Positions 46,888 through 63,519 are shown, numbered from the stretch's first letter. The stretch: DNA of 64,000 nt from Alphaproteobacteria bacterium (GCA_965248835.1 CBDFLJ010000001.1:544001-608000); one strand, 5' to 3'. Notes: generated by a model from the letters alone, not told the origin. Translations and numbers: made by a program.

Positions 46888-46936
46888 ACCGTCGCCCGAT
46901 TGGCCGCGCGCGCCAAAGCCGCTAGCGTGCGGCGGC

Positions 46937-47998
46937 ATGTTCGTGCGCAATTCGTGGTATGTGGCGGCCTTCTCGAGCGAGATCGGCCGCGCGCCGTTCG
47001 CCCGCACGATCCTCGGTGAGCCGTTGGTGCTATACCGCCGGGGCGACGGGTCGGTCGCGGCGTTGGAAGACCGGTGCTGCCACCGCGCCCTGCCGCTGTC
47101 GATGGGTCGGGTGGAGGGCGATGCGCTGCGCTGCGGCTATCACGGCCTGCTCTTCGATGCCGCCGGGACCTGCATCGAGGTGCCGGGTCAGACTCACGTC
47201 CCGCCAGGCGCGGCGGTCGGCGCCTATCCGGTCCACGAGCGCTGGGGCTGGGTGTGGATCTGGATGGGCCTATCCGAACGCGCCGATCCGGCGCAGATCC
47301 CCGACTGGTGGTGGATGGACCACCCCGACTGGCGGGTGGTCGAGGGCAACGGCGCGACGCCGCTGCACATGGAGTGCAACTACGAGCTGATCACCGACAA
47401 CCTGATGGACGTCTCGCACCTGACCTACGTCCATTCGTCCTCGATCGGGGCGGAGTCGATCCCGGACTTCCCGATCAGGACCGAGCGGCGCGGGCGGCTC
47501 GTGCGCATGACCCGATGGGTGCTCGACCGCCCGGCAGCGCCGTTCTACCAGGCCGCCGGCAAATTTCCCGGCAATGTCGACCGCTGGATGATCACCGACA
47601 CCGAGCTTCCCTGCCACACGGTCAACGATGTCGGTTGTGCGCCGGCGGGAGCGGGCGCCGCCGACGGCGACCGCACCCGGGCGGTCGAGTTCCGGGTCCT
47701 GAACGCCCCGACGCCGGAAACCGCGACGTCCACCCACTACTTCTATGCCCGCCCCCGCCGCTTCGCCCAGGACAGCGCCGAGATGGACGAGGTCTTCCGC
47801 ACCCGGTTCGATGCGGTCTTCATCGAGGACAAGGCGGTGCTGGAGGCCCAGCAGCGGCGGCTCGGCGCCGCGCCCCGTGCCGCGCGGATCGACATCAATG
47901 CCGACATCCCGGGACTCGCCGTCCGGCGCATGCTGCGGGCGATGATCGAAGAGGAGCGCGCCGCGGTGCAGGGGCGATTGTCGTCCGGCCGGAATTGA
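46937..47998 (+). CDS. Rieske oxygenase alpha subunit, VanA-like (O/N-demethylase type)
   Basis: RNSWYVAA, DRCCHR...CGYHG, DNLMDVSHLTYVH, TPET, ED. Confidence 0.92.
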   Translation: MFVRNSWYVAAFSSEIGRAPFARTILGEPLVLYRRGDGSVAALEDRCCHRALPLSMGRVEGDALRCGYHGLLFDAAGTCIEVPGQTHVPPGAAVGAYPVHERWGWVWIWMGLSERADPAQIPDWWWMDHPDWRVVEGNGATPLHMECNYELITDNLMDVSHLTYVHSSSIGAESIPDFPIRTERRGRLVRMTRWVLDRPAAPFYQAAGKFPGNVDRWMITDTELPCHTVNDVGCAPAGAGAADGDRTRAVEFRVLNAPTPETATSTHYFYARPRRFAQDSAEMDEVFRTRFDAVFIEDKAVLEAQQRRLGAAPRAARIDINADIPGLAVRRMLRAMIEEERAAVQGRLSSGRN

Positions 47999-48039
47999 AC
48001 CATTGTCTTGGCGATAAGGACCGATGGCAGGAGAGGATC

Positions 48040-48831
48040 ATGACCGCCCACGCGCACGACGAATTCCAGCTTGCACCGCCTTCAACCGGGTTCGGCGAGG
48101 TCCTCAACGAGGAGCTTGCGCATCTCGGCAACCGCATGCGCAACCACGCGATCGTCGAGGATGTCGAGGCCGGCAAGGCCTCGATGGCGCTGATCCGCGG
48201 ATTCACCAAGGAATTCCTGCCAATCGTGCGCGGCACATACCGCCGGATGGCGATGCGCCTGCAGCACGCGGCCTTCCACGACTACCACTTGCAGATGAAG
48301 CTGCTGCAGGAATGCGAGGAAGAGGTCTTCCACACGCCAATGTACCTGCGCTGGTGCGAGGCGATCGGGATGAGGATCCCCGAAGACCTGGTCGATGAAA
48401 TGTTCATCCCCGAGACCTATGCCTTCGTGCTGCTGCTGGATGCGGCATCGGCCGGCCGGGCCACCCTGGAGGAGACTTGCGGCCGGGTGTTCGAGCCCGA
48501 CGTCGCCTGGGACGGGTTCAACAACTATTCCCAGCAGTCCTCGCTGGTGCAGACGATCGCGATCAGCGGCTTCGCGCTGCGCGGCTTCCCGGTTGCCTCG
48601 GATCGGCTGCGCGACGGCTTCAAGGAGCATTACGGCTATAGCGACGAAGAGGTCGAGTTCTGGACCGAGCACGGCACCGTCGACATGGAGCACGCCGAGA
48701 TGGGCGTGGACATCATCGACCGCTACGCGACCACCCCGGGCTTGCAGAAGCGCGCGCGCGAGGCCGCGACCCTGAGCCTCGAGCTGTGGCTCCGCCAGTG
48801 GGATGCGGTCTACGCCAAATACCAGCACTGA
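48040..48831 (+). CDS. Heme-oxygenase-like diiron (TenA/PqqC/CADD) family enzyme
   Basis: ECEEEVFH (E-x6-H) and FWTEHGTVDMEH (H-x3-D-x2-H) metal motifs; SD GGAGAGG. Confidence 0.75.
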   Translation: MTAHAHDEFQLAPPSTGFGEVLNEELAHLGNRMRNHAIVEDVEAGKASMALIRGFTKEFLPIVRGTYRRMAMRLQHAAFHDYHLQMKLLQECEEEVFHTPMYLRWCEAIGMRIPEDLVDEMFIPETYAFVLLLDAASAGRATLEETCGRVFEPDVAWDGFNNYSQQSSLVQTIAISGFALRGFPVASDRLRDGFKEHYGYSDEEVEFWTEHGTVDMEHAEMGVDIIDRYATTPGLQKRAREAATLSLELWLRQWDAVYAKYQH

Positions 48832-48840
48832 GGCAACGCG

Positions 48841-51174
48841 ATGGGCGATCGGGGGATCGGGGCGAGCGTCCCGCGCAACGAGGACGCGCGCTTCCTGCAC
48901 GGCCGCGGCCAGTATGTCGGCGACATCGCGCTGCCGCGGACGCTGAACGCGGCGTTCCTGCGCTCTCCGGTAGCGCACGCCCGGGTCCGCGCGATCCGCA
49001 TCCCCGATGCGATCCGCGAGCATGTCTTCGTTGCGGCCGATCTTGAAGACGTCAAGCCGATCCGGGCAATCGCCTCGCTCGCCGGCTACAAGGCGTCCGA
49101 CTATCCGGTGCTGGCGACCGAAAAGGTGCGCTTCGTGGGCGAACCGGTGGCGGTCGCGGTTGCGGCCGAGCGCGGCGAGGCCGAGGACCTGATCGAACAG
49201 GTGGTCTTCGACTACGAGGCGCTGCCGGCGGCGGTCGAATCCCTGGAGGCGCGGGGGCCCGGCGCACCCCTGGTCCACGAGCACTGGGGCGACAACATCG
49301 TCCATTCCGGCGTCTTCCAGGCCGGCGAGATCGACCGTATCGCCGGCGAGGCGGCGCACGCGGTCACCCGATCCTTCAAGATCGGCCGTCAGGTCCACAT
49401 GCCCATGGAAAGCCGCGCGGCGCTCGCCCATTACGACACGCGGCTGGATGAGATCGTCATCTACAACTCCAACCAGATGCCGCATCTGATCCAGTCCGGC
49501 CTCGCCGACGTGCTCGGGATCGAGCAGCGCCGCGTCCGGGTGGTCTCGCCCGATGTCGGCGGCGGGTTCGGCTTGAAGATCTATGTCGAGCCCGAATGCG
49601 TCGTGGCGGCCTGGCTCGCCAGAAAGCTCGGCCGGCCGGTGCGCTGGATCGAGGACAATTTCGAGCACCTGACCGCCGATGCCAACTGCCGCGAGCACCG
49701 CTACACCATCACCGCCCACACCGACGGCGGCGGCAGGATCCTGGGCGTGGAGTTCGACGTCACCGTCGATGCCGGGGCCTATTCGATCTGGCCGTGGACT
49801 TCGGCGGTCGAGGCCGCCCAGGCCGGCGGCATCCTGACCTCGGCCTACGATTTCCGCCACTTTCGCGCCAAGGTCTCCACGGTCGCGACCAACAAGCCGC
49901 CGATCGTGGTCTACCGCGGCGTCGCGCGGCCCGGCGTGTGCTTCGCCGAGGAGCTGCTGATCGATGCGATCGCGCGCACCGTGGGGCGCGAACCGCACGA
50001 GGTCCGGATCGACAACATGGTCCGCGCCGAACAGATGCCGTATACCACCGTCACCAACAAGGTCTACGACAGCGGCGACTACCCGGCCTGCATCGGCAAA
50101 GCCGCCGAGATGATCGACGTCGCGGCCGTCCGCGCCCGCCAGAAGGCCGGCGCGGATGACGGGCGGCTGATCGGCGTCGGCTTCGGCTGCTATACCGAAC
50201 AGACCGCCCACGGCACCTCGGTGCTGTCGAAATGGGGGGTCGAGTTGGTCCCGGGCTTCGAGCCGGCGCGCGCCCGGCTGACGCCCGACGGCGAACTGGT
50301 GCTCGAAGTCGCGATCCATTCCCACGGTCAGGGCTTACAGACCACGCTGGCCCAGGTCGCAAGCGAGGTCCTGGGGCTCGACCCGAGTCGGATCGCGGTG
50401 CGGTTCGGCGACACCTCGGTCTCGCCCTACGGGACCGGGACCTACGCATCGCGCAGCATCGTGATGGCGGGCGGTGCGGTCGCGCTGGCAAGCCGCTCGC
50501 TTGCCGAGCGTATCGGCCATATCGGAGCGCACCTGCTGCAATGCGACCGCGCCGAGGTCAGGGTCGAGAACGCCGAGGTCCACGGTCCCGGCGGCAGCGT
50601 CGACTTCAAGGCCGTGGCCCGGGCCTGGTACGCCCATCCCGAGGAGCTGCCGCCCGACATCGACCGCGAGGGGTTGACGGTAACCAGCGGCTACCGCCCC
50701 GAGCCCGATTCGGGGGTCTTCTCATACGCCACCCACGCCGCGGTGATCGCGTTGGATCCCGAGCTCGGCGCGGTCGAGATCCTCGACTACGTCGTGGTCG
50801 AGGATTGCGGCCAGGTGGTCAACCCGATGATCGTCGACGGCCAGGTGATCGGCGGCACCGTGCAGGGGATCGGCACCGCGCTCTACGAGGAGGCGGTCTT
50901 CGATGCCGACGGCCAGCCGCTCAACGGCACGCTCGCCGACTACCAGATCCCCGGCGCGACCGAGGTTCCCGATATCCGCCTGTCGCACATGTCCACCCCA
51001 TCGCCGTGGACCGAGTTCGGCATCAAGGGGATGGGCGAGGGCGGGGCGATCGCGCCGCCGGCCGCGATCGGCAATGCGATCAACGACGCGCTGTCGGTCC
51101 TCGGCGTGGAGATCACCCAGTCGCCGATGACGCCGCGGCGGATCATGGCGGCGCTCGAGGAGGCGGGCCGATGA
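48841..51174 (+). CDS. Xanthine dehydrogenase/CoxL-family molybdopterin-binding large subunit
   Basis: RNEDARFLHGRGQY, VGGGFGLK, YRGVARP, HGQG, GTYASRS, KGMGEGG. Confidence 0.93.
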   Translation: MGDRGIGASVPRNEDARFLHGRGQYVGDIALPRTLNAAFLRSPVAHARVRAIRIPDAIREHVFVAADLEDVKPIRAIASLAGYKASDYPVLATEKVRFVGEPVAVAVAAERGEAEDLIEQVVFDYEALPAAVESLEARGPGAPLVHEHWGDNIVHSGVFQAGEIDRIAGEAAHAVTRSFKIGRQVHMPMESRAALAHYDTRLDEIVIYNSNQMPHLIQSGLADVLGIEQRRVRVVSPDVGGGFGLKIYVEPECVVAAWLARKLGRPVRWIEDNFEHLTADANCREHRYTITAHTDGGGRILGVEFDVTVDAGAYSIWPWTSAVEAAQAGGILTSAYDFRHFRAKVSTVATNKPPIVVYRGVARPGVCFAEELLIDAIARTVGREPHEVRIDNMVRAEQMPYTTVTNKVYDSGDYPACIGKAAEMIDVAAVRARQKAGADDGRLIGVGFGCYTEQTAHGTSVLSKWGVELVPGFEPARARLTPDGELVLEVAIHSHGQGLQTTLAQVASEVLGLDPSRIAVRFGDTSVSPYGTGTYASRSIVMAGGAVALASRSLAERIGHIGAHLLQCDRAEVRVENAEVHGPGGSVDFKAVARAWYAHPEELPPDIDREGLTVTSGYRPEPDSGVFSYATHAAVIALDPELGAVEILDYVVVEDCGQVVNPMIVDGQVIGGTVQGIGTALYEEAVFDADGQPLNGTLADYQIPGATEVPDIRLSHMSTPSPWTEFGIKGMGEGGAIAPPAAIGNAINDALSVLGVEITQSPMTPRRIMAALEEAGR

Positions 51175-52019
51175 AGGCGCCCGCGCTCGACTACACCAGG
51201 CCCGAAACGTTGGCAGCCGCGATCGCGGCGATGGCCGGTGCGGGCGACAGCGCCAAGCTGTTGGGCGGCGGCCAGTCACTGGGGCCGATGCTGAACCTGC
51301 GCCTGCTGCGTCCGGCGCTTCTGGTCGACATCTCGCGGCTCGCGGAGCTGTCGACGGTCGAGCAGACCGCCGAGGGCTTGCGTATCGGCGCCGCGGTCAC
51401 CCATTCGGCGATCGAGGACGGCGCGGTGCCGGATGCCACCAACGGGCTGATGGACTTCGTCGCCGGCCAGATCGCCTATCGCGCGGTGCGCAATTGCGGG
51501 ACCATCGGCGGCAGCCTGGCGCATGCCGATCCGGCCGGCGACTGGGCGCCGGTGATGATGGCGCTGGGCGCCTCGGTCGGGATCGAAGGCCCGGCCGGCC
51601 GGCGCGAGGTTGCGGTAAACGATCTGATCACCGATGTGATGACGGCCGCGCTTGCGCCCGAGGAGGTGCTGGTCGATATCCGCGTCCCGCATCTGTCGCC
51701 CGGCGCGCGCTGGGGCCATTACAAGCTGACGCGAAAGCCCGGCAAGTTCGCCGATGCGATTGCGGTGGTGGTCGCCGATGACGCGCGCGGCCATCACCGG
51801 GTCACCGTCGCCCGCCCGTCCGCGCCGCCCCGGCTGATGGCGCGGGCCGGCGCGGCGGTTGCAGCCGCCGCCGGCTGGTCGCAAGCGCTGGACCGTGGCA
51901 TCCGCGAGGCCGTGGCGGCCGACCTTGCAGCCGAGCCCAACCCCGACCCGGACCCGGTGCAGCAGCGATATCATATGGTGACCGTGGCCCGCGCCGCGCA
52001 CCGGGCGCTGACGTCATGA
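51171..52019 (+). CDS. CoxM-like FAD-binding subunit
   Basis: GGQSLGPMLNLR, AVRNCGTIGGSLAHADP; ATGA overlap. Confidence 0.92.
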   Translation: MKAPALDYTRPETLAAAIAAMAGAGDSAKLLGGGQSLGPMLNLRLLRPALLVDISRLAELSTVEQTAEGLRIGAAVTHSAIEDGAVPDATNGLMDFVAGQIAYRAVRNCGTIGGSLAHADPAGDWAPVMMALGASVGIEGPAGRREVAVNDLITDVMTAALAPEEVLVDIRVPHLSPGARWGHYKLTRKPGKFADAIAVVVADDARGHHRVTVARPSAPPRLMARAGAAVAAAAGWSQALDRGIREAVAADLAAEPNPDPDPVQQRYHMVTVARAAHRALTS

Positions 52020-52483
52020 GCGCGGTCCGGATGACGCTGAACGGCCGCGCGGTGGAGGCCGACATCCCGGCGCGGCGATCACTGGCCGATTACGTGCGCG
52101 ACCACGAGGGGCTGACCGGCACCCACCTGACCTGCGAGCTGGGGGTGTGCGGGGCGTGCACGGTGATGGTCGACGGTGCGCCGCGGCGTTCGTGCATCAC
52201 GCTTGCGGTGGCCTGCGACGGCCGCGAAATCCGCACCGTGGAAGGCTTCGAGGACGATCCGGTCATGGCGGTCATCCGGCGCTGCTTCTCGGCGGCCCAC
52301 GCGCTGCAGTGCGGCTATTGCACGCCCGGCATGCTGATCACCGCGCACGACATCGCAACACGGCTGCCGGACGCGGACCGCGATCGCATCCGGCTCGAGC
52401 TCAGCGGCAATCTATGCCGCTGCACCGGCTATATCGGCATCATAAACGCCATCGAAATGGCCTTGGCGGAGCTGCGCAAATGA
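52016..52483 (+). CDS. CoxS-like (2Fe-2S)-binding subunit
   Basis: CELGVCGAC, QCGYCTPG, NLCRCTGY. Confidence 0.95.
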   Translation: MSAVRMTLNGRAVEADIPARRSLADYVRDHEGLTGTHLTCELGVCGACTVMVDGAPRRSCITLAVACDGREIRTVEGFEDDPVMAVIRRCFSAAHALQCGYCTPGMLITAHDIATRLPDADRDRIRLELSGNLCRCTGYIGIINAIEMALAELRK

Positions 52484-53430
52484 CCATCCCCCGGCCCAGG
52501 CGGCTGACCCATGCCAACCTGTTCGTCGCCGACATGGAACGCTCGATGGATTTCTATCAATCGGTGATCGGGCTCGGCGAGTCCTATCGCCGGGTCAACA
52601 TCGGCGCGGGTTTCCTCACCAACGGCAACTCTCATCACGATATCGCGGTGATGGAGTTCGGCCGGGTCTATGCGGGAAAGCGCGATCCGGGCCGCACGAT
52701 CGGGCTCAACCATCTCGCCTTCGAGATGGAGAACGGCCTCGAGCTTGACCGTTGGTACCGCTCGGCGGCCGCCGCCGGTGCCGATATCCACCGCACCGTC
52801 GATCACGGCAACACTCATTCCTGCTACATGCTCGACCCCGACGGCAACCAGATCGAGGTCTATTGCGACACGATCAAGGAATGGTGGCACCTCAAGACCG
52901 GGGTGATGACGACGCCGTTGGACGATTGGGTGCCGGGCGAGGGCGAACCGTCGACGGAGCCGAAATATCTCCGGGACCCGGACATCGGCCGCCGCGAGGA
53001 CGCCCCGCTGCACCCCGTCAAGACGACCCATGCGGTTCTGGTGGCCGGCGATTTCGAGGCGTGCCTGGATTTCTATACCGGGATCGTCGGGCTTGCGCCG
53101 CTCAACGGCGGACGCGGCGAGCGGTGCTGCGTCCTGGCCGGCGGGTTGGGCACGCCGTGTCTCGCGCTGTTCCGCGCCGCGCAAGGCCTCGATCCCGGCT
53201 TCCACCACGTCGCGCTTTCGGCCTGGAGCGTCGAGGAGCTGATCGACTCGCGCGCCCGGCTCGCCGAGGCGGGCATCGCGATCGAGGCCGAGACCGACCA
53301 TCCGAGCCGTTACGCGCTCTGTGTGCGGGACCCGGACGGCTTTCGGGTTCAGGTCTATGCCGACCGGCCCGGCGGTTCCGCCGTCGACTGGACCGCCGAG
53401 GACGCAGCGCGGTCGGTCTATCTGGCATAG
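52480..53430 (+). CDS. Two-domain VOC family protein (extradiol dioxygenase-like)
   Basis: LTHANL, HHDIA, LNHLAFE, DPDGNQIE, second domain HHVA...DPDG; ATGA overlap. Confidence 0.85.
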   Translation: MTIPRPRRLTHANLFVADMERSMDFYQSVIGLGESYRRVNIGAGFLTNGNSHHDIAVMEFGRVYAGKRDPGRTIGLNHLAFEMENGLELDRWYRSAAAAGADIHRTVDHGNTHSCYMLDPDGNQIEVYCDTIKEWWHLKTGVMTTPLDDWVPGEGEPSTEPKYLRDPDIGRREDAPLHPVKTTHAVLVAGDFEACLDFYTGIVGLAPLNGGRGERCCVLAGGLGTPCLALFRAAQGLDPGFHHVALSAWSVEELIDSRARLAEAGIAIEAETDHPSRYALCVRDPDGFRVQVYADRPGGSAVDWTAEDAARSVYLA

Positions 53431-53442
53431 GACGAGGGCAGG

Positions 53443-54894
53443 ATGACCGATATCGCCTTTTTGCCGGCCAAGTCGCTGGCACGCATGATCCGGCGACGCA
53501 AGATCGGCTGCGTGGAGCTGCTGGACCACTATCTGGAACGGGTCGATCGGTACAACCCGGCGCTGAACGCGATCGTGGTCTTCGACATCGACAGGGCGCG
53601 CCGCCGTGCGCGCGACGCCGACCGCGCACTCGCCAAGGACGAGGTCTGGGGACCGTTGCACGGCGTGCCGATGACGGTGAAGGATTCCTTCGATGTGACC
53701 GGGTTGCCGACGACCTGGGGCGTGCCTGCCCACAAGGACAATATCGCGACCTCGAACGCGGTCTCGGTCGAGCGCTGGCTGGGCGCGGGGGCGGTGATCT
53801 TCGGCAAGACCAACATCCCGATCTGGCTCGCCGATGCGCAGAGCTTCAACGACTTCTACGGCCGCACCAACAGCCCATGGAACCTGGATTTGACGCCCGG
53901 CGGCTCCTCGGGCGGCGCGGCCGCCGCGCTTGCCGCGGGCATGACCGCAATCGAGATGGGCAGCGATATCGCGTCCTCGGTTCGAACACCTTCGGCGCTG
54001 TGCGGCCTGTTCGGCCACAAGCCGACCTTCGGGATCTGCCCCACCCGCGGCCATACGCTGAACGAGAACCTGCGGGCGCTCGACATCCTGGCGATCGGGC
54101 CGATGGGGCGTTCGGCGGACGACGTCGCGCTGGGCTTGTCGATCATTGCCGGCCCCGACGAGATCGAAGCCCCGGGCACGCGGCTTGCCCTGCCGGCGCC
54201 GCGTGAGAAGCGGCTCGGCGACTACAAGGTCGGGATCATCATCGATCACCCGACATCGAAGGTCGAAAATGCCGTGGCCGCGCTGCTGCAAAAGCTCGCC
54301 GATTTCCTGGCGCGGCAGAAGACCAGGATCAGCGACACCGCGCGGCCCGATTTCGACATCGAGGACGCCCACCGGACCTTCGATATCCTGCTGCGCTCGG
54401 CGACCTCGGGCCGGCTGAGCGATGACGAACAGGCGGATTTGCGCGGCCGACTCGCCGCCTTGCCGGCCGACGCCGACACCAAGCAGGCGCGCATGATGCG
54501 CGGCTGCACGCTGTCCCATCGCGACTGGATCCATCTCGACGAGAAGCGCCAACGGATGCGCTGGAAGTGGCACGCCTTCTTCAAGGACTACGACCTGATG
54601 CTGGCACCGGTGCTGTGCACCGCGGCCTTCCCGCACGTGACTACGCCGCCCTACGACCGCTCGATCACGATCGACGGCGAGGAGCGGGTCTTCATGGAGC
54701 AGATCTTCTGGTCGGGGTATTCCGGGATGTCCTACCTGCCGGCAAGTGCGGCGCCGATCGGGGTTACCGATGACGGACGGCCGGTCGGCGTGCAGATCAT
54801 CGGACCGCAAAACGGCGACCGGACGTGCCTGCATTTCGCGCGTCTGTTGGAGAAGGCGTATCAGGGCTTCGTCGTCCCGCCCGGATACGAATGA
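53443..54894 (+). CDS. Amidase-signature family amidase
   Basis: GVPMTVKD, GKTN, GGSSGG, GSDIASSVR. Confidence 0.93.
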   Translation: MTDIAFLPAKSLARMIRRRKIGCVELLDHYLERVDRYNPALNAIVVFDIDRARRRARDADRALAKDEVWGPLHGVPMTVKDSFDVTGLPTTWGVPAHKDNIATSNAVSVERWLGAGAVIFGKTNIPIWLADAQSFNDFYGRTNSPWNLDLTPGGSSGGAAAALAAGMTAIEMGSDIASSVRTPSALCGLFGHKPTFGICPTRGHTLNENLRALDILAIGPMGRSADDVALGLSIIAGPDEIEAPGTRLALPAPREKRLGDYKVGIIIDHPTSKVENAVAALLQKLADFLARQKTRISDTARPDFDIEDAHRTFDILLRSATSGRLSDDEQADLRGRLAALPADADTKQARMMRGCTLSHRDWIHLDEKRQRMRWKWHAFFKDYDLMLAPVLCTAAFPHVTTPPYDRSITIDGEERVFMEQIFWSGYSGMSYLPASAAPIGVTDDGRPVGVQIIGPQNGDRTCLHFARLLEKAYQGFVVPPGYE

Positions 54895-54909
54895 TCCGCC
54901 GCGGATGCT

Positions 54910-54938
54910 TTGACGGGCCGGCGCGCAGGCAATATCCT
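54910..54938 (+). promoter_or_regulatory. Putative sigma70 promoter of the Sec-GST gene
   Basis: TTGACG-N17-TATCCT. Confidence 0.6.
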
Positions 54939-54979
54939 TGTCGGACCGCCTACCGACACCGCTACTATCGAGGAAACAG

Positions 54980-55678
54980 ATGACCAAGAAGCACCACCTG
55001 ATCAGCTCGTTCACCTGACCCTGGGTCCAGCGCGCCGTGATCCTTTTGCGCGCAAAAGATGTCGATTTCGAGGTCACTTACATCAACCTGAGAGACAAGC
55101 CGGACTGGTTTCTCGAGATCTCGCCGCACGGCAAGGTCCCGGTCCTGGTCGTCGACGACCAGCCGCTGTTCGAATCCAACGCGATCGCCGAATATCTCGA
55201 CGAGATGGTCGCGCCCAGGCTCCACCCCGAGGACCCGATCAAGCGGGCGCGGAACCGGGCCTGGACCGACTTCGTACCGGATTTCTCCCGCGCGTTGATG
55301 GGCATCTACTACACCAAGACCAGGGAGGCGATGGAAGAAGGCCTGGCCGCCGCGCCCACGCGGGTCGCCAGGCTGGAAGAGGCCATCGCCAAGGAACGCG
55401 GCAATGACGGCCCCTATTTCAACGGCGCCCAACCGTGCCTCGTCGATGCCGCCTATGCGCCGTTCTTCCAGCGCTTCGACCTCGTCGAGCGCTATTTGAA
55501 GACCGGCCTCCTGGACGGGTTTCCGCTGGTCAAGGCATGGTCGGATACCTTGCTCGGGACCGAGCTGGTAACCGGTTCGGTGGTTTCGCATTTCGAGGAC
55601 GAGTTCATCGGCAACTTGCGGCGCAACGAACACTATGTCGCAACGCTGATCGATGCGGAGACGGTCGCGGCGGAATAG
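54980..55678 (+). CDS. Glutathione S-transferase (Cys/omega-like), probable selenoprotein with in-frame TGA at 55016-55018
   Basis: SD GAGG, then ATG-MTKKHHLISSFT-TGA-PWVQRAVILL; SPHGKVPVL, FESNAIAEYL; the TGA sits at the catalytic Cys of the C-P-[W/F/Y] motif. Confidence 0.85.
55040..55060 (+). promoter_or_regulatory. Candidate bacterial SECIS hairpin
   Basis: ATC(C)TTTTG-CGCG-CAAAAGAT stem-loop, loop about 30 nt after the UGA with G in loop position 2. Confidence 0.6.
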
Positions 55679-55711
55679 CCGGCGGCCTTCCGCAAACGAT
55701 CGAACGAGACG

Positions 55712-55744
55712 CGGCGGCCCGTTCCTTCCCGGAACGGGCCGCCG
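55712..55744 (+). terminator. Hairpin, putative terminator after the GST gene
   Basis: Perfect 14-bp stem CGGCGGCCCGTTCC-TTCCC-GGAACGGGCCGCCG; weak U tail. Confidence 0.6.
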
Positions 55745-55766
55745 TTCCAATTCGGATACCGCGATC

Positions 55767-56963
55767 ATGAGCACATCGCAGTCCGCCGCGAATGAGCTCC
55801 TCGAGCGCGCCCAGGCGCTGGCCCCGATGTTGCGCGCGCGCCAGGACGAGATCGAGCGGCTCCGCCGGATCCCGACCGACATCATCGAGCGCCTCAAAGA
55901 GGACGGGCTCTACCGCGCGATGATGCCGCGCAGCCGCGGCGGCTACGAGATCGGGTTGGACGACTTCGTGCGAATCGGCGTGGAAATCGGCACCGGCTGC
56001 GCCTCGACCGGCTGGGTCTTTTGCACCGGCGCACAGCATCTGTGGCAGATCGGCATGTTCGACGCCGCCGCGCAGGACGAGGTCTGGGGGCGGGCGCGCT
56101 TGCCGCTGGCCGGGTCGTCCTACGCGCCCAGCGGCACCGCGGTCGCGGTCGAGGGCGGCTACCGCCTGAGCGGGCGCTGGATGTTCTGCAGCGGCATCGA
56201 CGCTTGCGACTGGATGATCCTTGGCGTACGGATCCTGCCCGCACCCGATGCCGAGCCGGTCGATCAGGGTTTCGCGCTGGTGCCGGCCGCGGACTACGCG
56301 ATCGAGGACAACTGGCATGTCGTCGGGCTCGAAGGCACCGGCAGCAAGAACGCGGTGCTCGATGAGGTCTTCGTGCCCCGCCACCGGGTCATGGGCCTGG
56401 AGGAGGCGACGATGGGCCGCCCGCCCGGCACGGCGGTCAACGACGGCGCGCTGTTCCGGATCCCGTTCTTTGCCGCGATCTCGATCGGGCTATGTGCGCC
56501 GGCGCTGGGCGCGGCGATGGGCGCGCTGGCCGACTACCGCGAGTCGATCGGCGTGCGCGTGACCCGCGGCCCGGCGACCAGCGCAGGCCGGGCGATGGCC
56601 GAGTTCCAGGCAATCCAGCTGCGCGTGGGCGAGGCGGCCGCACGCCTGGATTCGGCCCTGCTGCTGGTGCTGCGCGACTGCCGCGAGATCATGCAGACGA
56701 TCGGCGCGGGCGGCGCGCTCAGCCAGGCCAGCCGCGCGCGCAACAAGGGCGATCTGAGCTATGCGGTCAGATCGGCCGCGGGCGCGGTCGACTTGCTGTT
56801 CGAATCCGTCGGCGGCCAGGGGCTGTTCGACGACAACCGCATCCAGCGGGCGTGGCGCGACGTCCACGCCGCGGCCAAGCACATAAGCCTCGCCTGGGAT
56901 TCGACCGGGGCGATCTACGGCCGGACGCTTCTCGGCCTGTCGGCGGGCACGATCCAGATCTGA
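55767..56963 (+). CDS. Acyl-CoA-dehydrogenase-fold flavin-dependent monooxygenase (HsaA/C2-like)
   Basis: CASTGW, GRWMFCSG, WHVVGLEGTGS, QRAWRDVHAAAKH. Confidence 0.9.
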   Translation: MSTSQSAANELLERAQALAPMLRARQDEIERLRRIPTDIIERLKEDGLYRAMMPRSRGGYEIGLDDFVRIGVEIGTGCASTGWVFCTGAQHLWQIGMFDAAAQDEVWGRARLPLAGSSYAPSGTAVAVEGGYRLSGRWMFCSGIDACDWMILGVRILPAPDAEPVDQGFALVPAADYAIEDNWHVVGLEGTGSKNAVLDEVFVPRHRVMGLEEATMGRPPGTAVNDGALFRIPFFAAISIGLCAPALGAAMGALADYRESIGVRVTRGPATSAGRAMAEFQAIQLRVGEAAARLDSALLLVLRDCREIMQTIGAGGALSQASRARNKGDLSYAVRSAAGAVDLLFESVGGQGLFDDNRIQRAWRDVHAAAKHISLAWDSTGAIYGRTLLGLSAGTIQI

Positions 56964-56965
56964 GG

Positions 56966-58156
56966 TCAAACGACGCGGTCTGCCCGCAAGGCGCCGATCT
57001 CCGCCCCGCTGAACCCGAACTCGGCAAGAACGGCGTCGGTATCGGCGCCGTACTCGGGTGCCGGAGCCGGCCGATCGATGCTGGGCGTCCGGCTCAGCCG
57101 GACGGCCTGCCCGACGATTTCGATCCCGCCCAGCACGGGCGAGTCGACCGGCCGAGCAATGCCACTGTGCCGCACCTGGGGGTCGGCGAAAGTCTCATCG
57201 AGGGTGTAGATCGGCCCGGCCGGGATGCCCTGGGTATTGAGGTCGGCGATCCAGTCCGCGCCGGGGCGGGCGAGCGTGACCGCCTCGATCGCGGCGTTGA
57301 CCGCCTCGCGGTTGCGGTAGCGCGCCTCGAACGTGGCGAACTTCGGATCGTCGATCATCGCATCCAGCCCGAGCGCCCGGCAGAACCGCGCCCACATCGC
57401 CGGCATCGGCGCGATGTTGATATGGCCGTCGGCGGTCCGGAAGGCGCCGGTCGGCACGATGTTCGGGTGGTCGTTGCCGGCCTGGGGCGGCACTTCATGC
57501 GCGACCAGCCAGCGGGCGGCCTGGAAGTCCATCAGGAAGATCTGCGCCTCCAGCAGCGAGGTCTGGACCCACTGACCCCGTCCGGACGCCGTGCGCTCGA
57601 GCAACGCCAGCAGGATCCCGTTGGCAGCAAGCAGCCCTGCCGAGACGTCGGCGATCGCCGCGCCCGAGCGCATCGGCCCCTCGCCTGCCCGGCCGGTCGA
57701 GGCCATGTGCCCGCCCATTCCTTGCGCGATCTGGTCCAGGCACGGCCGGTCGCGGTAGGGGCCGTCCTGACCGAAGCCGGAAATACTGGCATAGACGATG
57801 CGCGCATTGCGCGCAGCCACGGTCTCGTAGTCGATCCCCAGCCGGTGCTTGACCGCCGGGCGGTAGTTCTCGATGACCACATCGGCCTCGGCGGCCATGC
57901 GGAGGAACGCGTCCCGCCCCGCCGGCGCTTTCAGGTCAAGTGTCATCGACCGCTTGTTGCGGTGGAGGTTCTGGAAGTCCGCGGCGTGGCGCCGGCCGAC
58001 ATCGCCGCCGTCCTGGCCGGGTGCTTCGATCTTGATCACATCGGCACCCCAATCGGCCATCTGGCGCGCCGCCGTCGGCCCGGCCCGCGCGCGGGTAAGA
58101 TCGAGCACCACCGTGCCCGCCAGGACCGAAACCCCGCCGCCGCCACGTTCCGCCAT
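56966..58156 (-). CDS. Class III CoA-transferase (CaiB/BaiF)
   Basis: RAGP, GADVIKIE, HRNKRS, ENYRP, SISGFGQDGP, DQIAQ. Confidence 0.93.
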   Translation of the reverse strand: MAERGGGGVSVLAGTVVLDLTRARAGPTAARQMADWGADVIKIEAPGQDGGDVGRRHAADFQNLHRNKRSMTLDLKAPAGRDAFLRMAAEADVVIENYRPAVKHRLGIDYETVAARNARIVYASISGFGQDGPYRDRPCLDQIAQGMGGHMASTGRAGEGPMRSGAAIADVSAGLLAANGILLALLERTASGRGQWVQTSLLEAQIFLMDFQAARWLVAHEVPPQAGNDHPNIVPTGAFRTADGHINIAPMPAMWARFCRALGLDAMIDDPKFATFEARYRNREAVNAAIEAVTLARPGADWIADLNTQGIPAGPIYTLDETFADPQVRHSGIARPVDSPVLGGIEIVGQAVRLSRTPSIDRPAPAPEYGADTDAVLAEFGFSGAEIGALRADRVV

Positions 58157-58247
58157 CGCCTGAGCCCTCCTTGCCGACCCGGCGATGATAGCGCAGACTT
58201 TCGCCGCTTGGCCTCACCAGGTCTCCGGAAAGGCGTCAGGGGGGAAG

Positions 58248-59492
58248 ATGGACCTGATCATTCGCAACGCGCGGCGGCTCGACCAGGACGGGCAGTGGGA
58301 TATCGGGATCGAGGGCGACCGGATCGCCGAGATTTCCCGGCGGATCGAGACCGCCGCGGCCGAAGAGATCGACGCCGCCGGCCGGCTTGCCGCACCGACC
58401 TATGTCAACGGCCATGTGCACCTGGACAAGTGCAATCTGGGCGACATCATGCGCCCCAACGAGACCAACAGCTTCCAGGAATGCCTGGAGATCACCTGGG
58501 AGCACAAGCGCAGCTACACGGTCGAGGACATTCTCGAGCGCGCCGGCCGGGCCATCGAAGAGGGCATCCTCAACGGAACGACCATCTTCCGGGTCTTCGC
58601 CGATGTCGATTCCATCGGCGGCCTGCGCCCGCTCGAGGGGATCATCGCGCTGCGCGAAAAATGGGCCGGCATCGTCACGATCCAGGCGGTGGATTTCCCG
58701 CAGGAAGCGATCCTCCGCGATCCCGGCACCTACGAGCTCATGGAGGAAGGGCTCCGGATGGGCGCCGACGTGGTCGGCGGCCTGCCGTGGCACGAGCATC
58801 TGGACGAGGATGCCAGGAGCCATATCGACCTGTGCTTCGATCTCGCCGGGAAGTACGACAAAGACATCCACATGCTGGTCGACGACACCGACAATCCCAA
58901 CAGCCGGTCGCTCGAATACCTCGCCGTGAAGACCATCCGCGAGGGTTTCCAGGGCCGTGTCTCGGCGAGCCATTGCGGGGCGCTCGCCGCCTATGACGAG
59001 GTGCATGCCCACAAGGTGATGAACCTGGTCCGCGATGCGGGCGTTTCGATCTCGTCGAACCCGCAGATCAGCCTGGTGGCGCAGGGCCGCTACGATCAGG
59101 CCAACATGCGCCGCGGCATCACGCGGACCAAGGATTTGTGGCGCATCGGCGTCAACGTGTTCACCTCCCAGGACGACGTCAACGATCCCTATTATCCCTT
59201 CGGCCGCAACGATCAGCAGGAGGTGGCCGCCCATGTCTGCCACGCCTGCCACATGACCTATCCGGACGAGATCCGCGCGGTGTTCGATTTCATCACCGCC
59301 AATCCGGCCAAGGCGCTGCGGCTGGAGGATTACGGTTTGGAAACCGGCCGCAAAGCCGACCTCAACGTGCTCTGCGCACCCACCATCCAGCACGTCTTCC
59401 GGCTGCAGCAGCCGCCGGCCTGGGTGATCAAGGACGGCAAGGTCCTGGCCAGGACCGAGATGACGCGCGCTCTCGACCGTGCGCCGTCGTGA
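58248..59492 (+). CDS. Cytosine/creatinine deaminase-like amidohydrolase
   Basis: HVHLDK, FPQE, VGGLP, SHC, QDDVNDPYYPFG. Confidence 0.9.
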   Translation: MDLIIRNARRLDQDGQWDIGIEGDRIAEISRRIETAAAEEIDAAGRLAAPTYVNGHVHLDKCNLGDIMRPNETNSFQECLEITWEHKRSYTVEDILERAGRAIEEGILNGTTIFRVFADVDSIGGLRPLEGIIALREKWAGIVTIQAVDFPQEAILRDPGTYELMEEGLRMGADVVGGLPWHEHLDEDARSHIDLCFDLAGKYDKDIHMLVDDTDNPNSRSLEYLAVKTIREGFQGRVSASHCGALAAYDEVHAHKVMNLVRDAGVSISSNPQISLVAQGRYDQANMRRGITRTKDLWRIGVNVFTSQDDVNDPYYPFGRNDQQEVAAHVCHACHMTYPDEIRAVFDFITANPAKALRLEDYGLETGRKADLNVLCAPTIQHVFRLQQPPAWVIKDGKVLARTEMTRALDRAPS

Positions 59493-59504
59493 CGCGCCCG
59501 CGCC

Positions 59505-60263
59505 TCAGATCGCGGTGTAGGCCGCATCGACGAAGTGGTCGGCGCCCGAGGTGAACGAGGACTCGTCGCTGGCGAGGAACAAGGCGGTCCGCGCGACTTC
59601 CTCGGGCCGGCCCAGCCGGTTCTGCAGCAAGCGCTCGCCGTGGCGCGCGATCACGCCTTCGATCGAGGGATTGCGCACCAGGAGCCGCGGCGTCTCGATC
59701 GGACCGGGCAGGATCGCGTTGGCGCGGATGTTGTCGACGGCATAATCGACCGCGATCGACTTGGCCAGCATCCGCACACCGCCCTTGGAGGCGTTGTAGG
59801 CCGGCCGCTCGTAAGCGCCGATATGGCCGTAGATCGAAGACACCAGCACCAGCGAGCCGCCGCGGTTCCTTTGCATGTGCGGGATGGCGTGCTTGGCGAC
59901 GATGAACATGCCGGTCAGGTTGACGTCGATCACCGCCTTCCAGGTCTCGACCGGCATATCGGCCAGGCGGTGGCGGGGTTCGGAATAGGCCGCGGCGTTG
60001 AAGACGGTGTCGAGCTTGCCGTAAGTTGCGACCGTCTCGGCCAGTGCCGCGGCCACCGCATCGGAATCGGTGACGTCGCAGACCCGGGCGAAGGCGCGCC
60101 CGCCGGCCGCCTCGATATCGGCCGCGGTCTGTATCACCTTGTCCTCGACGATGTCGATGCAGCAGACCGCCGCCCCTTCGGCCCCATAAAGCCGCGCCGT
60201 GGCGCCGGCGATCGCCCCGCCCGCCGCCGTCACGAAGGCGACCTTGCCGTCGAGCCGTCCCAT
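59505..60263 (-). CDS. Short-chain dehydrogenase/reductase
   Basis: RLDGKVAFVTAAGGAIA, FNAA, YNASKGG; TGATG coupling to the upstream gene. Confidence 0.9.
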   Translation of the reverse strand: MGRLDGKVAFVTAAGGAIAGATARLYGAEGAAVCCIDIVEDKVIQTAADIEAAGGRAFARVCDVTDSDAVAAALAETVATYGKLDTVFNAAAYSEPRHRLADMPVETWKAVIDVNLTGMFIVAKHAIPHMQRNRGGSLVLVSSIYGHIGAYERPAYNASKGGVRMLAKSIAVDYAVDNIRANAILPGPIETPRLLVRNPSIEGVIARHGERLLQNRLGRPEEVARTALFLASDESSFTSGADHFVDAAYTAI

Positions 60264-62545
60264 CAGTGTCCCCCTTCGGTGCCATGCAGGATCGCCAGAA
60301 GCCGGGCGGGCGTCACCGGAAGGCGCGTGATCGCGCCGGGCCGGCCGATCGCATCGTCGATCGCCGAGGCGATCGCCGCGCCGGCGGCGTTGATGCCGGC
60401 CTCGCCGGCGCCCTTGAGCCCCAACGGGTTGGTCCCCGACGGCGCATCCTCGCGGATCAGCGAATCGATCCGCGGCGTCTCCTCGACGCCGGGCAGCAGG
60501 TAGTCGGCGAAGTTCGTCGACAGGGGCTGGCCGGCGGAATCGTACAGGAACTCCTCGTAGAGCGCGCCGCCGACCCCCTGGGCGACGCCGCCGGTGATCT
60601 GGCCTTCGATCAGCATCGGGTTCACCGCCCGGCCGATGTCGAAGGCGACCGCGAAGCGCTCCAGCTCGACCCCGCCTGTCTCGACATCGACGGCGAGCAC
60701 GACCAGGTGGATGCCATAGGGGTAGGTCATGTGCTCGACCTCGAAGGTCGCTTCGGCGCCGGCCTTTGCCGTGCCCTTGTCCTGGGCGAGCGCCGCGGCG
60801 ATCGCGCCGATCGGGGCCGACGGCCCGTCGCGGCCCGCCCGGACCGTGCCGTCGGCCAACTCCAGGGTCTCGGCGGGGGATTGCAGCAGCCGTGCCGCGA
60901 CGCCGATCAGGTCGTCCTTCAGCGTGTTCGCGGCCATGTGGGTGGCGGTGCCGGTCATCACCGTGACCCGCGATGCGAATGCGCCCATCCCGCGATCGAT
61001 CCGGTCGGTCTGGCCGTGGGTGACGGTGATCGTCGCGTAGTCGATCCCCAGCACGTCGGCACAGATCTGGGCGATGACGGTCTCCACGCCCTGGCCGACG
61101 GATGCCACGCCGGTGATCACCTCGGCCCGGCCGTCCCCGTCGAGCTCGATGCGGACGTCGTCCCACGGCCCGAGCCCGCTTTTCTCGACGAAGCAGCCGA
61201 AACCGATGCCGACATGCTCGCCGGCCGCGCGCCGCGCCGCGACCCGGGCGCTCAGCCGGTCGTAGCCGACCTCTTCCAGCAACCGGTCGAAGAGGTCTTC
61301 GTAGAGCCCGGAATCGATCAGCACCGGGGTCTCCATCGCCTGGAAGTAGCGCGAATAGGGCATCGCCTCGGCCGGGATGAAGTTGCGCCGGCGCACCTCG
61401 ATGCGATCGATGCCGACCCGGTGGGCGATCGCGTCGAGCAGCCGCTCGCGCGCGAAGGTCGACTCGTAGCGCCCGGGAGCCCGGTATGTGCCGGCCGGCG
61501 TCTTGTTGGTCAGGCGGACATGGGCGCCGGCATGGAAGGCCGGGACCAGATAGGGCCCGGCGAGCATCGCGGTCGCGAGGTCGGTCACCGTCACCCCGTG
61601 GCTGCGAACGTAAGCGCCCTGGTCCGAATAGATGTCGTCCTCGAGACCCAGGATGAAGCCCCGCGGGTCGATGGCCGCGCGGATGCGGTGCACCTGGTCG
61701 CGTGAATGGTTCATGCTCAGGAGGTTTTCGCGCCGGTCCTCGATCCACTTGACCGGCCGGCCGAGGCGTCGGGCCGCGATGCAGACCAGCACGTCCTCGG
61801 GGTAGAGCTCGCCGCGCACGCCGAACCCGCCGCCGACATGGCCCTCGAACAGCTCCAGGTCGTGGCGGCCGAGCCCCAGCATGGCGGCGATCGCGCCGCG
61901 GTTGTAGTGCGGCACCTTGGCCGCGCCATGGAGCTCGATGCGGTCGCGGTCCGGGTCGTATCGGGCGATGGCGCCGCGGGTCTCCAGCGGCACGCCCGAA
62001 TGACGCCCGACGGCGAACTCGACCTCGATGATGTCGGAGGCCGCGGCGAAGGCGGCCTCGCGGTCGCCGTAATACTTCTCCACCAGCGCCGCTTCGGTGT
62101 CGAGGCCGGGGGCGAAGGCGGCGGGCGGCCCGGTGGCGCTCAAGCAGGGCGTGTCCTCGGCCACCGCGACCGTTACCGCTTCGGCGGCGTCTTCTGCCCG
62201 GTAGCGTTCCTCCGCGAAGACCAGCGCCACCGGCTCGCCGACATAGCGCACCACACCCTGGGCGAGGATCGGCTGGCGGTAGGGTTCGAGCCCGGCGAGA
62301 CGGGACAGGCGGAAATCGATCGGCGGGATGTCGGCGACTTCCGCGCCGGTCCACACTGCGACAACGCCCGGCATCGCCGCGGCCCGGCCGGTTTCGATCG
62401 CGGTGATGCGCCCGAACGCCACCGGGGCGCGCACCACTCGCATATGGACTTGATCGGCAAAGTTCACGTCATCGGCAAAGCGTCCCCGTCCGGTGAGCAA
62501 TGCACGGTCTTCGATGCGGGGAACGCTCCGGCCGATGACGCTCAT
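60263..62545 (-). CDS. Xanthine dehydrogenase/CoxL-family molybdopterin-binding large subunit
   Basis: GRSVPRIEDRALLTGRG, VGGGFGVRGE, TYRAPGR, GAFASR, KGAGEAG. Confidence 0.92.
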   Translation of the reverse strand: MSVIGRSVPRIEDRALLTGRGRFADDVNFADQVHMRVVRAPVAFGRITAIETGRAAAMPGVVAVWTGAEVADIPPIDFRLSRLAGLEPYRQPILAQGVVRYVGEPVALVFAEERYRAEDAAEAVTVAVAEDTPCLSATGPPAAFAPGLDTEAALVEKYYGDREAAFAAASDIIEVEFAVGRHSGVPLETRGAIARYDPDRDRIELHGAAKVPHYNRGAIAAMLGLGRHDLELFEGHVGGGFGVRGELYPEDVLVCIAARRLGRPVKWIEDRRENLLSMNHSRDQVHRIRAAIDPRGFILGLEDDIYSDQGAYVRSHGVTVTDLATAMLAGPYLVPAFHAGAHVRLTNKTPAGTYRAPGRYESTFARERLLDAIAHRVGIDRIEVRRRNFIPAEAMPYSRYFQAMETPVLIDSGLYEDLFDRLLEEVGYDRLSARVAARRAAGEHVGIGFGCFVEKSGLGPWDDVRIELDGDGRAEVITGVASVGQGVETVIAQICADVLGIDYATITVTHGQTDRIDRGMGAFASRVTVMTGTATHMAANTLKDDLIGVAARLLQSPAETLELADGTVRAGRDGPSAPIGAIAAALAQDKGTAKAGAEATFEVEHMTYPYGIHLVVLAVDVETGGVELERFAVAFDIGRAVNPMLIEGQITGGVAQGVGGALYEEFLYDSAGQPLSTNFADYLLPGVEETPRIDSLIREDAPSGTNPLGLKGAGEAGINAAGAAIASAIDDAIGRPGAITRLPVTPARLLAILHGTEGGH

Positions 62546-62673
62546 CGGCGCGGCAGTGGTTGCGCCGGGGGATAAAAACCGGTTCTCATGGCCGCTACGA
62601 TACCAAGCGGGCAACCGGCTGGCCAATCGAGCAAAGGGCAACGGGCCGGCGACAGCGACAGGAGGGGCACGCC

Positions 62674-63519
62674 ATGAAGATGGTCGATCTATCGCACATG
62701 ATGAACCTGCACACGCCGGGCTGGGTCGGCTATGCCGGCAACAAGATGTATTACGCCCAGAACCTGCAGACCAAAGCGATCGTGGCGCAGCGGATCGACA
62801 CCGCCCTTCATGTCGGCACCCACCTCGACGGCGCAATGCACGCCACCGATGCCAAGGGCGACATGGGCTCCTACGCGCTCGACTATCTGGTTGGCCAGGG
62901 CGCGGTGGTCGACGTCTCCGCCCATATGGAGGACTGGGCGGTCATCACGCCGGAGATGATGGAATCCGCCCCGGTCGAGATCAGGAACGGCGACATCCTG
63001 ATCATCCACACCGGCTATCACCGCTATTACGAAGGTCGGCCGCAGCAGGATCTGGTGCGCTATTTCTGCCTGCACCCCGGCGGCAGTCTCGCCCTGCTCC
63101 ATTGGATGCTGGACAAGAAGATCAAGTGGTTCGGCATCGACTGCGGCTCGGGCGATCATGCGATGAACACCTCGATCCGCCACATGCGCCCCGACCTCGC
63201 CGCCGAATTCGAGGCCCAGGTCGGCAAGACCTGCGGGGCGTTCTTCGGCGAATACACCTACACCCACAGCCTGTCGGGCCGGAAGGTCAAGTCCGACATC
63301 TTCCCCTTCCACTCCTACGCCTTCCAGGAGGGGCTGATCCACGCCGAAAACGTCGGCGGCGATATCGAGCTGATGCTCAACCAGCGCTGCGTGATCGGCG
63401 CCTTCCCGTGGCGCTACGAAGGGCTGGAGGCCTGCCCGTGCCGCATCGTCTGCTTCACCGATGTCGGCGAGGACATCGAAGCGATCGGCGGTGTCGCCCG
63501 GGCCGTCAAGGGCGCATAG
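62674..63519 (+). CDS. Cyclase family (kynurenine formamidase-like) metal hydrolase
   Basis: VDLSH, HVGTHLDG, GDILIIHTG, GID, HAEN, PCRIV; SD GGAGG. Confidence 0.88.
   Translation: MKMVDLSHMMNLHTPGWVGYAGNKMYYAQNLQTKAIVAQRIDTALHVGTHLDGAMHATDAKGDMGSYALDYLVGQGAVVDVSAHMEDWAVITPEMMESAPVEIRNGDILIIHTGYHRYYEGRPQQDLVRYFCLHPGGSLALLHWMLDKKIKWFGIDCGSGDHAMNTSIRHMRPDLAAEFEAQVGKTCGAFFGEYTYTHSLSGRKVKSDIFPFHSYAFQEGLIHAENVGGDIELMLNQRCVIGAFPWRYEGLEACPCRIVCFTDVGEDIEAIGGVARAVKGA

Follow-up and report, generated by a model that had tools for sequence, protein, structure and literature searches.

Natural glutathione S-transferases (GSTs) of the Cys type (Omega, DHAR, Lambda, and TDR1) are mainly thiol transferases and reductases. 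In E. coli, the SECIS element of fdhF is a hairpin in the coding region, right after the UGA codon, and it is read by SelB.

GSTs that contain selenocysteine (Sec) were first reported in 2005. Table 1 of Zhang, Fomenko and Gladyshev (2005; PMC1088965) includes "Glutathione S-transferase", with 4 sequences, among the new selenoprotein families from the Sargasso Sea, and the same paper describes the bacterial SECIS as a hairpin that immediately follows the UGA and has a G near the start of its small apical loop. A GST selenoprotein is listed again in the GOS data, with 12 sequences (2008; PMC2398784). A review from 2026 has an entry for "GST-like protein, PF13409", with one example accession, and calls such families functionally uncharacterised (PMC13188914). 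The tables in these papers match the statement in the initial annotation of our locus that Sec-containing GSTs are rare and are known from environmental sequence.

Going by these sources, the gene that we describe here is a further, unannotated member of a Sec-containing GST family that has been published since 2005. The concept of a Sec-GST is unchanged, because it was already known. What we add is what appears to be the correct SECIS element, the contrast between Sec and Cys forms at synonymous sites, the dominance of Sec within a clade, a measure of how widespread the truncation is in public protein sets, and the distribution of the gene (10 of 401 sampled Alphaproteobacteria genomes, with selA in 9 of the 10).

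The coding frame of the gene extends across a TGA codon

We analyzed a window of 64,000 nucleotides from an alphaproteobacterial genome (GCA_965248835.1, CBDFLJ010000001.1:544001-608000). Unless another contig is named, positions are counted from the first nucleotide of this window. In the table-11 ORF list, the Sec-GST gene begins with GTG at 55037 and encodes 213 amino acids. The initial annotation noted this start and, upstream of it, a Shine-Dalgarno sequence and an ATG at 54980 in frame with a TGA; its coordinates and letters agree with the sequence. GAGG is at 54970-54973, the ATG is at 54980, and a single frame reads MTKKHHLISSFT-TGA(55016-55018)-PWVQRAVILLRAK and continues to a TAG at 55676-55678.

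54970..54975, + strand: Shine-Dalgarno-like GAGGAA, 6 nt (counted from GAGG) upstream of the ATG, as read from the sequence
54980..55678, + strand: complete Sec-GST coding sequence, 232 codons with UGA as the 13th, then the stop codon TAG at 55676-55678
55016..55018, + strand: UGA read as Sec (residue 13), at the N-terminus of helix alpha1

If the TGA is read through, the product is a complete 232-residue GST with U-P-W-V-Q-R. Pfam matches this product with GST_N_2 from residue 12 (4e-20) and also with GST_N_3 and GST_C_2. The true product would be this protein of 232 residues with Sec13, and not the 213-residue protein that is recorded.

The initial annotation raised the possibility that reads might show TGC or TGT at 55016-55018. 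No such codon, nor any other alternative letter, is listed there in the contigs of three runs, which are from one sample and are not independent of the assembly because they are possibly its own source. Within 54987-55073, the summed contig depth of these runs (X1-X3) rises from ~20 to 400-740 exactly over the stretch with the UGA and the SECIS, and several of their contigs terminate at 55013-55024. This near-invariant 40-nt segment appears to be common to many related organisms in the sample and to break assembly graphs there. A contig from an RNA library (X6) is ~90% alike, which makes it a relative, and covers 54967-55546 including the TGA. Such libraries can contain DNA, and we therefore did not take this contig to show transcription.

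Codon 13 is TGA or a cysteine codon across relatives

We read codon 13 in 80 orthologous loci from other species, using contigs from one genome per species (MAGs of Alphaproteobacteria, including Defluviicoccus and Rhodospirillaceae, and a few Gammaproteobacteria). The codon is TGA in 78 of these loci, TGT in one, and TGC in one. The initial annotation had allowed that close homologs might never have TGA or Cys at this site; these counts (TGA in 78/80 and Cys codons in 2/80) show the reverse. In every one of the 80 loci, an in-frame M..KYHLISSxT peptide is present upstream of codon 13.

Similarly, we found a close ortholog in 10 of 401 genomes sampled evenly across the class (including the genome studied here), and codon 13 is TGA in each of the 10. 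From the same sample we read 19 more distant homologs (with CPW, CPY, or CPF), all of which have TGC or TGT. A metagenome scan (80 loci), whose search pattern was biased toward Cys forms, yielded 54 further TGA forms and 24 Cys forms. The Cys forms from metagenomes carry the same PWVQR peptide after codon 13, and the flanking peptide T-[U/C]-P-W-V-Q-R is identical whether the codon is TGA, TGC, or TGT. The UGA is exactly at the position of the catalytic cysteine of Cys-type GSTs, as the initial annotation had placed it: Cys homologs read C-P-W-V-Q-R there, and alignment with GST homologs pairs Cys with Sec at residue 13.

The codons upstream of the TGA vary synonymously and their residues are kept. 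For instance, Thr12 is encoded by ACC in 36 cases, by ACG in 20, by ACT in 20, and by ACA in 1. Codons 4-12 as a whole are conserved at the amino-acid level with synonymous variation, and L7, T12, C/U13, P14, and W15 are invariant in the alignment. Synonymous change combined with constant residues before the TGA implies selection at the protein level there.

Among the best 120 matches in the protein collection, 85 are short at the N-terminus (207-217 amino acids) and begin at the next available start past codon 13, with V-Q-R-A-V, V/M-I-L-L, or M-R-A-K. The other 35 comprise 34 full-length proteins with T-C-P-W-V-Q-R and one with T-W-P-W-V-Q-R. The truncation error in our gene is thus repeated in 85 of the best 120 protein clusters, and no NCBIfam model flags the family.

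We considered whether the TGA could be a true stop that reflects a nonsense mutation, a sequencing error, or a pseudogene, in which case the product, if any, would be the 213-residue protein from GTG 55037. Gene callers do give exactly these 213 amino acids (our own protein is P0001 in the collection), and the 85 short proteins are similar truncations. However, a true stop does not explain why TGA is found in 78 of 80 species downstream of a conserved in-frame peptide. The truncated starts also differ among relatives, as expected for arbitrary calls, and according to the structural model, the truncated protein would be without strand beta1 and the catalytic residue. Finally, the contigs of the three runs (one sample, possibly the source of the assembly) have no other letter at 55016-55018. 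We consider a true stop to be very improbable.

A putative SECIS element follows the UGA

Just past the UGA, we identified a conserved hairpin:

55019..55029, + strand: spacer of 11 nt from the UGA to the SECIS stem, from the alignment and the consensus structure
55030..55053, + strand: SECIS-type hairpin, in which GCGCGC (55030-35) pairs with GCGCGC (55048-53) around a 12-nt loop, CGUGAUCCUUUU (55036-47)

This hairpin is both the minimum free energy (MFE) fold of the gene's own RNA, at -10.6 kcal/mol with pair probabilities of 0.96-0.99, and the consensus structure of its relatives. Across the relatives, the 6-bp stem pairs GCGCGC with GCG[C/U]GC, and the 12-nt loop opens with CGUGAU, a start that is invariant in 77 of 79 loci. 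The stem is paired in 99.1% of alignment cells (71 distinct sequences), but these pairing counts alone prove little because the stem has no double-sided covariation, only a change from G-C to G-U at one pair. The support for the SECIS comes from its conservation and from the contrast between Sec and Cys forms, and it is decisive at synonymous sites.

Specifically, we computed the codon entropy at 74 conserved 4- or 6-fold degenerate codons in the 78 Sec genes. The lowest values are at codons 18, 19, and 20 (0, 0.17, and 0.17 bits); the next-lowest value is 0.83 bits and the median is 1.42 bits. Val16 and Ala25, which flank the frozen codons, vary freely. The freeze at synonymous sites covers codons 17-20 and is seen in TGA forms only. 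R-A-V (codons 18-20) is encoded by CGC GCC GTG in 108 of 117 distinct Sec forms, versus just 1 of the 13 Cys forms that encode R-A-V (Fisher 1e-10, with the caveat that relatives are not independent). Also, the SECIS stem is intact (6/6 pairs) in 107 of 117 Sec forms versus 6 of 22 Cys forms. Judging by reading of the sequences rather than by computed folds, the few nonconsensus Sec forms (L058/L060, L106/L177/L103, L184, L188-190, and L201) can form shifted or extended stems.

The initial annotation had proposed a different SECIS-like hairpin, with unusually AT-rich codons. Its complementarity does exist (55040-55060), but it is not a conserved SECIS: the GC stem at 55030-53, which overlaps it, is what is conserved. 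In the gene's own RNA, the hairpin at 55040-55060 has a free energy of -2.8 to -3.9 kcal/mol, the probability of its pairs is ~0, and the MFE fold does not include it. Across 79 TGA-bearing orthologs it is paired in 62.0% of cells, which is identical to the shuffled mean of 62.0%, so we rejected it. A scan of 54900-55800 against Rfam, with E up to 10, gave no SECIS family and just sub-threshold chance matches on the hairpin downstream of the gene.

The genome encodes Sec machinery and other putative selenoproteins

The genome that contains the window has a tRNA-Sec (74.7 bits), which ARAGORN reports as SeC with anticodon tca. It also has selA (517 bits), selB (444 bits), and selD (309 bits), all as open frames. 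selA and selB adjoin, ~2 kb from the tRNA-Sec. All four of the genes that the initial annotation suggested looking for (selA, selB, selC, and selD) are therefore present. The selD gene encodes a 754-residue fusion of an N-terminal pyridine-nucleotide-disulfide oxidoreductase (Pyr_redox_2) with the AIRS/AIRS_C domains of selenophosphate synthetase.

L018 1390-3654, - strand: selD fusion, ~49 kb before the start of the window

We found selA in 55 of the 401 sampled genomes overall, as compared to 9 of the 10 genomes with the TGA form (Fisher 8e-8; again, relatives are not independent). The genome with the TGA form in which selA was not found, G011, is 77% complete.

Five genes in our genome that are similar to CMD or AhpD have an in-frame TGA within a C-x-x-U motif. 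Three of the five match the NCBIfam model NF041238, "alkylhydroperoxidase-related (seleno)protein", with 357-458 bits (the cut-off is 175). These three paralogs have about 365-383 residues each.

G000:C2:2105728-2106879, - strand: NF041238 paralog with an in-frame TGA in C-[FT]-Y-U-T (one of loci L217-L219)
C2:1305948-1307048, - strand: NF041238 paralog with an in-frame TGA in C-[FT]-Y-U-T (one of loci L217-L219)
C2:2479112-2480227, + strand: NF041238 paralog with an in-frame TGA in C-[FT]-Y-U-T (one of loci L217-L219)
G000:C2:185349-185897 and C2:2090883-2091554, - strand: AhpD/CMD-like candidate selenoprotein genes (L215 and L216), with TGA in C-P-F-U and C-N-Y-U

L215 and L216 score 120 and 57 bits against the model for YciW-related (seleno)proteins, which is below its cut-off of 310. 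Their hairpins begin 11-13 nt past the UGA, with loops CGGGA and GGC, and we consider both genes to be candidates for encoding selenoproteins. Judging by the sequences of these genes, this genome uses its Sec machinery for other proteins as well.

Formate dehydrogenase, which we considered as a second selenoprotein, has no internal stop in any match in this genome. We also scanned the whole genome for selenoproteins (using TGA, GC3 on both sides, and a hairpin), but the 1706 candidates, of which 170 were left after alignment to paralogs, were mostly noisy frames or repeats. The scan also caught a family of small repeated ORFs, with more than 12 near-identical copies (e.g., C1:877879-878098 and C2:701938-702157) and a TGA where two paralogs carry Trp. 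This family is probably a repeat or the remnant of an insertion sequence, unrelated to Sec.

Could the UGA specify a residue other than Sec, because a near-cognate tRNA inserts, e.g., Trp or Cys or because the genetic code is an alternative one? One database protein (P0098) has W at the position of codon 13, but this probably comes from a metagenome contig on which genes were called with a code-4-type table. The frame of the amidase gene upstream of our gene ends at a TGA (54892-54894), and in homologs, residue 13 pairs with Cys and not with Trp. Furthermore, neither the freeze of the RNA, which is specific to TGA forms, nor the co-occurrence of TGA forms with selA would be expected from such decoding, and we give it almost no credence.

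The initial annotation described the gene as a hidden selenoprotein, and we agree: TGA is conserved in 78 of the 80 species loci, the sel machinery is present, and synonymous sites are frozen. From this comparative evidence, the gene is very probably a real selenoprotein gene.

Fold, class, and likely chemistry

Pfam, an AlphaFold model, and Foldseek agree that the Sec-GST has a thioredoxin-like N-terminal domain and a helical C-terminal domain. The AlphaFold model, from 48 aligned sequences, has a pLDDT of 93.1 and a pTM of 0.90. In the model, residue 13 is located between a strand (5-9) and a helix (14-25), where thioredoxin-fold enzymes have their catalytic nucleophile. The closest proteins of known structure, by sequence, are TDR1 from Leishmania (1.4e-24) and GSTO1 (6e-21), along with GST Omega 2, DHAR, and Lambda GSTs; the C-P-W position of the Sec-GST aligns with C-P-F in these nearest solved relatives. 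Foldseek finds both Tau and Omega GSTs at TM scores of 0.75-0.81, with Tau scoring as well as Omega. No NCBIfam model is above its own cut-off for the Sec-GST, so its placement as an Omega-like GST of the Cys type is based on ~25% identity to Omega, Tau, and DHAR enzymes. In particular, we rejected the zeta class (maiA), with 47.4 bits against a cut-off of 171, and this leaves the suggestion in the initial annotation of a reductive dehalogenase without support.

K52, V53, P54, E65, and S66 are invariant in the alignment. We take these to be the cis-proline (K52-V53-P54) and the Glu-Ser pair (E65-S66) of the glutathione site. The alignment does not contain a second invariant Cys, and therefore a single-nucleophile cycle through an enzyme-Se-S-glutathione intermediate seems most likely.

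We think it highly likely, on the comparative evidence, that the gene encodes a real Sec-containing GST of the Cys type that is decoded through the hairpin at 55030-53; its specific chemistry is less certain. We propose that SelB carrying Sec-tRNA(Sec) binds the hairpin (55030-55053), whose stem begins 11 nt past the UGA and whose loop begins C-G-U-G-A-U, and that Sec would thereby be delivered to the UGA at 55016-55018. By analogy to the family, glutathione would bind in the conserved G-site formed by K-V-P (52-54) and E-S (65-66). From its place at the N-terminus of helix alpha1, the selenolate would attack a glutathionylated or oxidized substrate to give enzyme-Se-S-glutathione, which a second glutathione would resolve, freeing GSSG. 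The activity would then be that of a thiol transferase, deglutathionylase, or reductase, as in GSTO, DHAR, and TDR1.

Alternatively, the selenoprotein's main job could be the glutathione-dependent reduction of hydroperoxides, which would make it a natural, GPx-like "seleno-GST". Peroxide would oxidize the selenolate to selenenic acid, and two glutathiones would recycle it. A glutathione site beside a selenolate is the design of the semisynthetic peroxidases that are described on a tau-class GST scaffold (PMC10812501). The other putative selenoproteins of the genome are related to alkylhydroperoxidases, which suggests that selenium is used for peroxide defense here. A housekeeping antioxidant would also be expected to have a stand-alone, widespread gene, as is the case for this one. 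On the other hand, the nearest Cys-type classes (Omega, DHAR, Lambda, and TDR1) are mainly thiol transferases or reductases. The sequence itself favors neither chemistry, and the Se-S-glutathione intermediate is common to both. We view a primary role as a peroxidase as possible but rather unlikely.

The gene is probably not part of a catabolic cluster

The Sec-GST gene is preceded by a promoter-like site and followed by a strong hairpin:

54910..54938, + strand: sigma-70-like promoter candidate, TTGACG-N17-TATCCT, with 9/12 consensus matches, in the 85-nt gap after the amidase gene
55711..55745, + strand: GC-rich hairpin of 15 bp, 32 nt past the stop codon, likely a terminator without a U-tract

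The promoter that the initial annotation proposed is present at 54910-54938, although it is just a match to the consensus: our promoter scan found 1 site versus 0.2 expected from shuffles. The downstream hairpin, which was described as 14 bp, is real and has a 15-bp stem; the 82-nt stretch around it folds at -43.3 kcal/mol (z = -3.9), and none of 200 shuffles was as good. A terminator scan did not report this hairpin because it lacks a U-tract.

Two parts of the window (46538-53430 and 55768-63519) contain a cluster that resembles those for catabolism of aromatic compounds or N-heterocycles. It includes a Rieske/VanA-type oxygenase, a heme-oxygenase-like protein, the large and FAD subunits of a molybdoenzyme of the xanthine dehydrogenase family, a VOC extradiol dioxygenase, an amidase, an ACAD-like flavoprotein, a family III CoA transferase, an amidohydrolase, and a cyclase. 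Here, the genes for the ACAD-like protein and the CoA transferase separate the GST gene from the amidohydrolase gene; in the closest relatives, the amidohydrolase comes right after the GST.

Given this location, the Sec-GST might be a deglutathionylase or a reductive dehalogenase that serves the surrounding catabolic genes. Indeed, it lies between the amidase and the ACAD-like flavoprotein, with other catabolic genes nearby. However, the flanking genes are not conserved across the 80 related loci. Using tblastn in these loci, we found no matches to the window's VOC dioxygenase and ACAD-like proteins and one weak match to its amidase (26% identity). The amidohydrolase is the only one of the window's five neighbors to recur, which it does in just the 9 closest loci. 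Clustering of the flanking ORFs from 81 loci gave no family of neighbors in more than 12 of them. The promoter-like site and hairpin of its own, as well as the low maiA/zeta-class score (47 bits, cut-off 171), are also at odds with a catabolic role, which we regard as improbable; the initial annotation's placing of the enzyme's function inside a catabolic region is doubtful. Because its neighbors are not conserved and it has its own promoter-like site and a strong hairpin, we interpret the Sec-GST as a stand-alone redox enzyme. The gene would act as a unit by itself, and not as a fixed part of a catabolic cluster.

Evolution of the Sec and Cys forms

For a quick maximum-likelihood tree, we took all loci with a complete gene (at least 190 residues) and removed identical sequences, which left 160 distinct proteins. 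The clade with P-W contains 153 of these (128 Sec and 25 Cys), and a fully supported long branch splits it from 7 Cys homologs with C-P-Y. Cys forms are nested in at least 5 places within the P-W clade. This requires at least 6 changes, 3 or more of which are unavoidable given the well-supported branches. The deepest members of the P-W clade have Sec, with the tree rooted by midpoint or outgroup only.

This pattern fits ancestral Sec and repeated replacement by Cys. We tentatively suggest that in GSTs with U/C-P-W-V-Q-R, Sec is the ancestral and default state and Cys has arisen from it several times, but we hold this to be somewhat less probable than even.

If this suggestion is correct, then the occurrence of the frozen CGUGAU here and of CGUGA after the UGA of an unrelated selenoprotein gene would point to a loop motif that is recognized by the SelB of these Alphaproteobacteria. 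The Sec-GST would also offer a natural case in which to study why a thiol transferase retains selenium, and public protein sets would systematically hold decapitated Sec-GSTs.

Comparison with known systems

Like the Omega (GSTO1/2), TDR1, DHAR, and Lambda enzymes, the Sec-GST has the canonical GST fold, with its catalytic residue in a C-P-[WFY] motif that opens helix alpha1. It differs from them in having Sec in place of Cys and in forming a separate bacterial clade, and it is only 24-28% identical to them (the same range holds for the Omega GSTs by themselves). It also lacks the N-terminal extension of the Omega enzymes, since the alignment begins at chain residue 28-34 in those proteins versus residue 9 here.

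The putative SECIS resembles the fdhF type in being a hairpin within the coding sequence, with the stem 11 nt past the UGA and a G (in GU) at the start of the loop. It differs in that the 12-nt loop is not small, the bulged U is absent, and CGUGAU is near-invariant.

Within the same genome, the NF041238 genes are similar to the Sec-GST in having an in-frame UGA in a redox motif, and they would share its decoding machinery. In one of them, C2:2479112-2480227, the UGA is followed by a hairpin whose loop, CGUGA, matches the first five loop bases of the GST SECIS. Unlike the Sec-GST, the NF041238 proteins have another fold and another motif, and a curated NCBIfam model flags them as selenoproteins, whereas there is none for the GST.

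As compared to the bacterial SECIS as outlined in PMC1088965, the layout agrees and the 12-nt loop here is larger. Our gene also resembles the published GST-like selenoproteins, as far as their table entries describe them: these are bacterial GSTs with Sec from an in-frame UGA that is followed by a SECIS-like hairpin, their Cys homologs are widespread, PF13409 is the best Pfam match, and they are mostly from uncultured marine or environmental bacteria. Our gene is likely in the same clade as the published Sec-GSTs from the Sargasso Sea and GOS data, with the agreement being in the Pfam family (PF13409) only. In contrast to the rarity that those tables convey, Sec is the majority state here, in 128 of the 153 members of a large clade.
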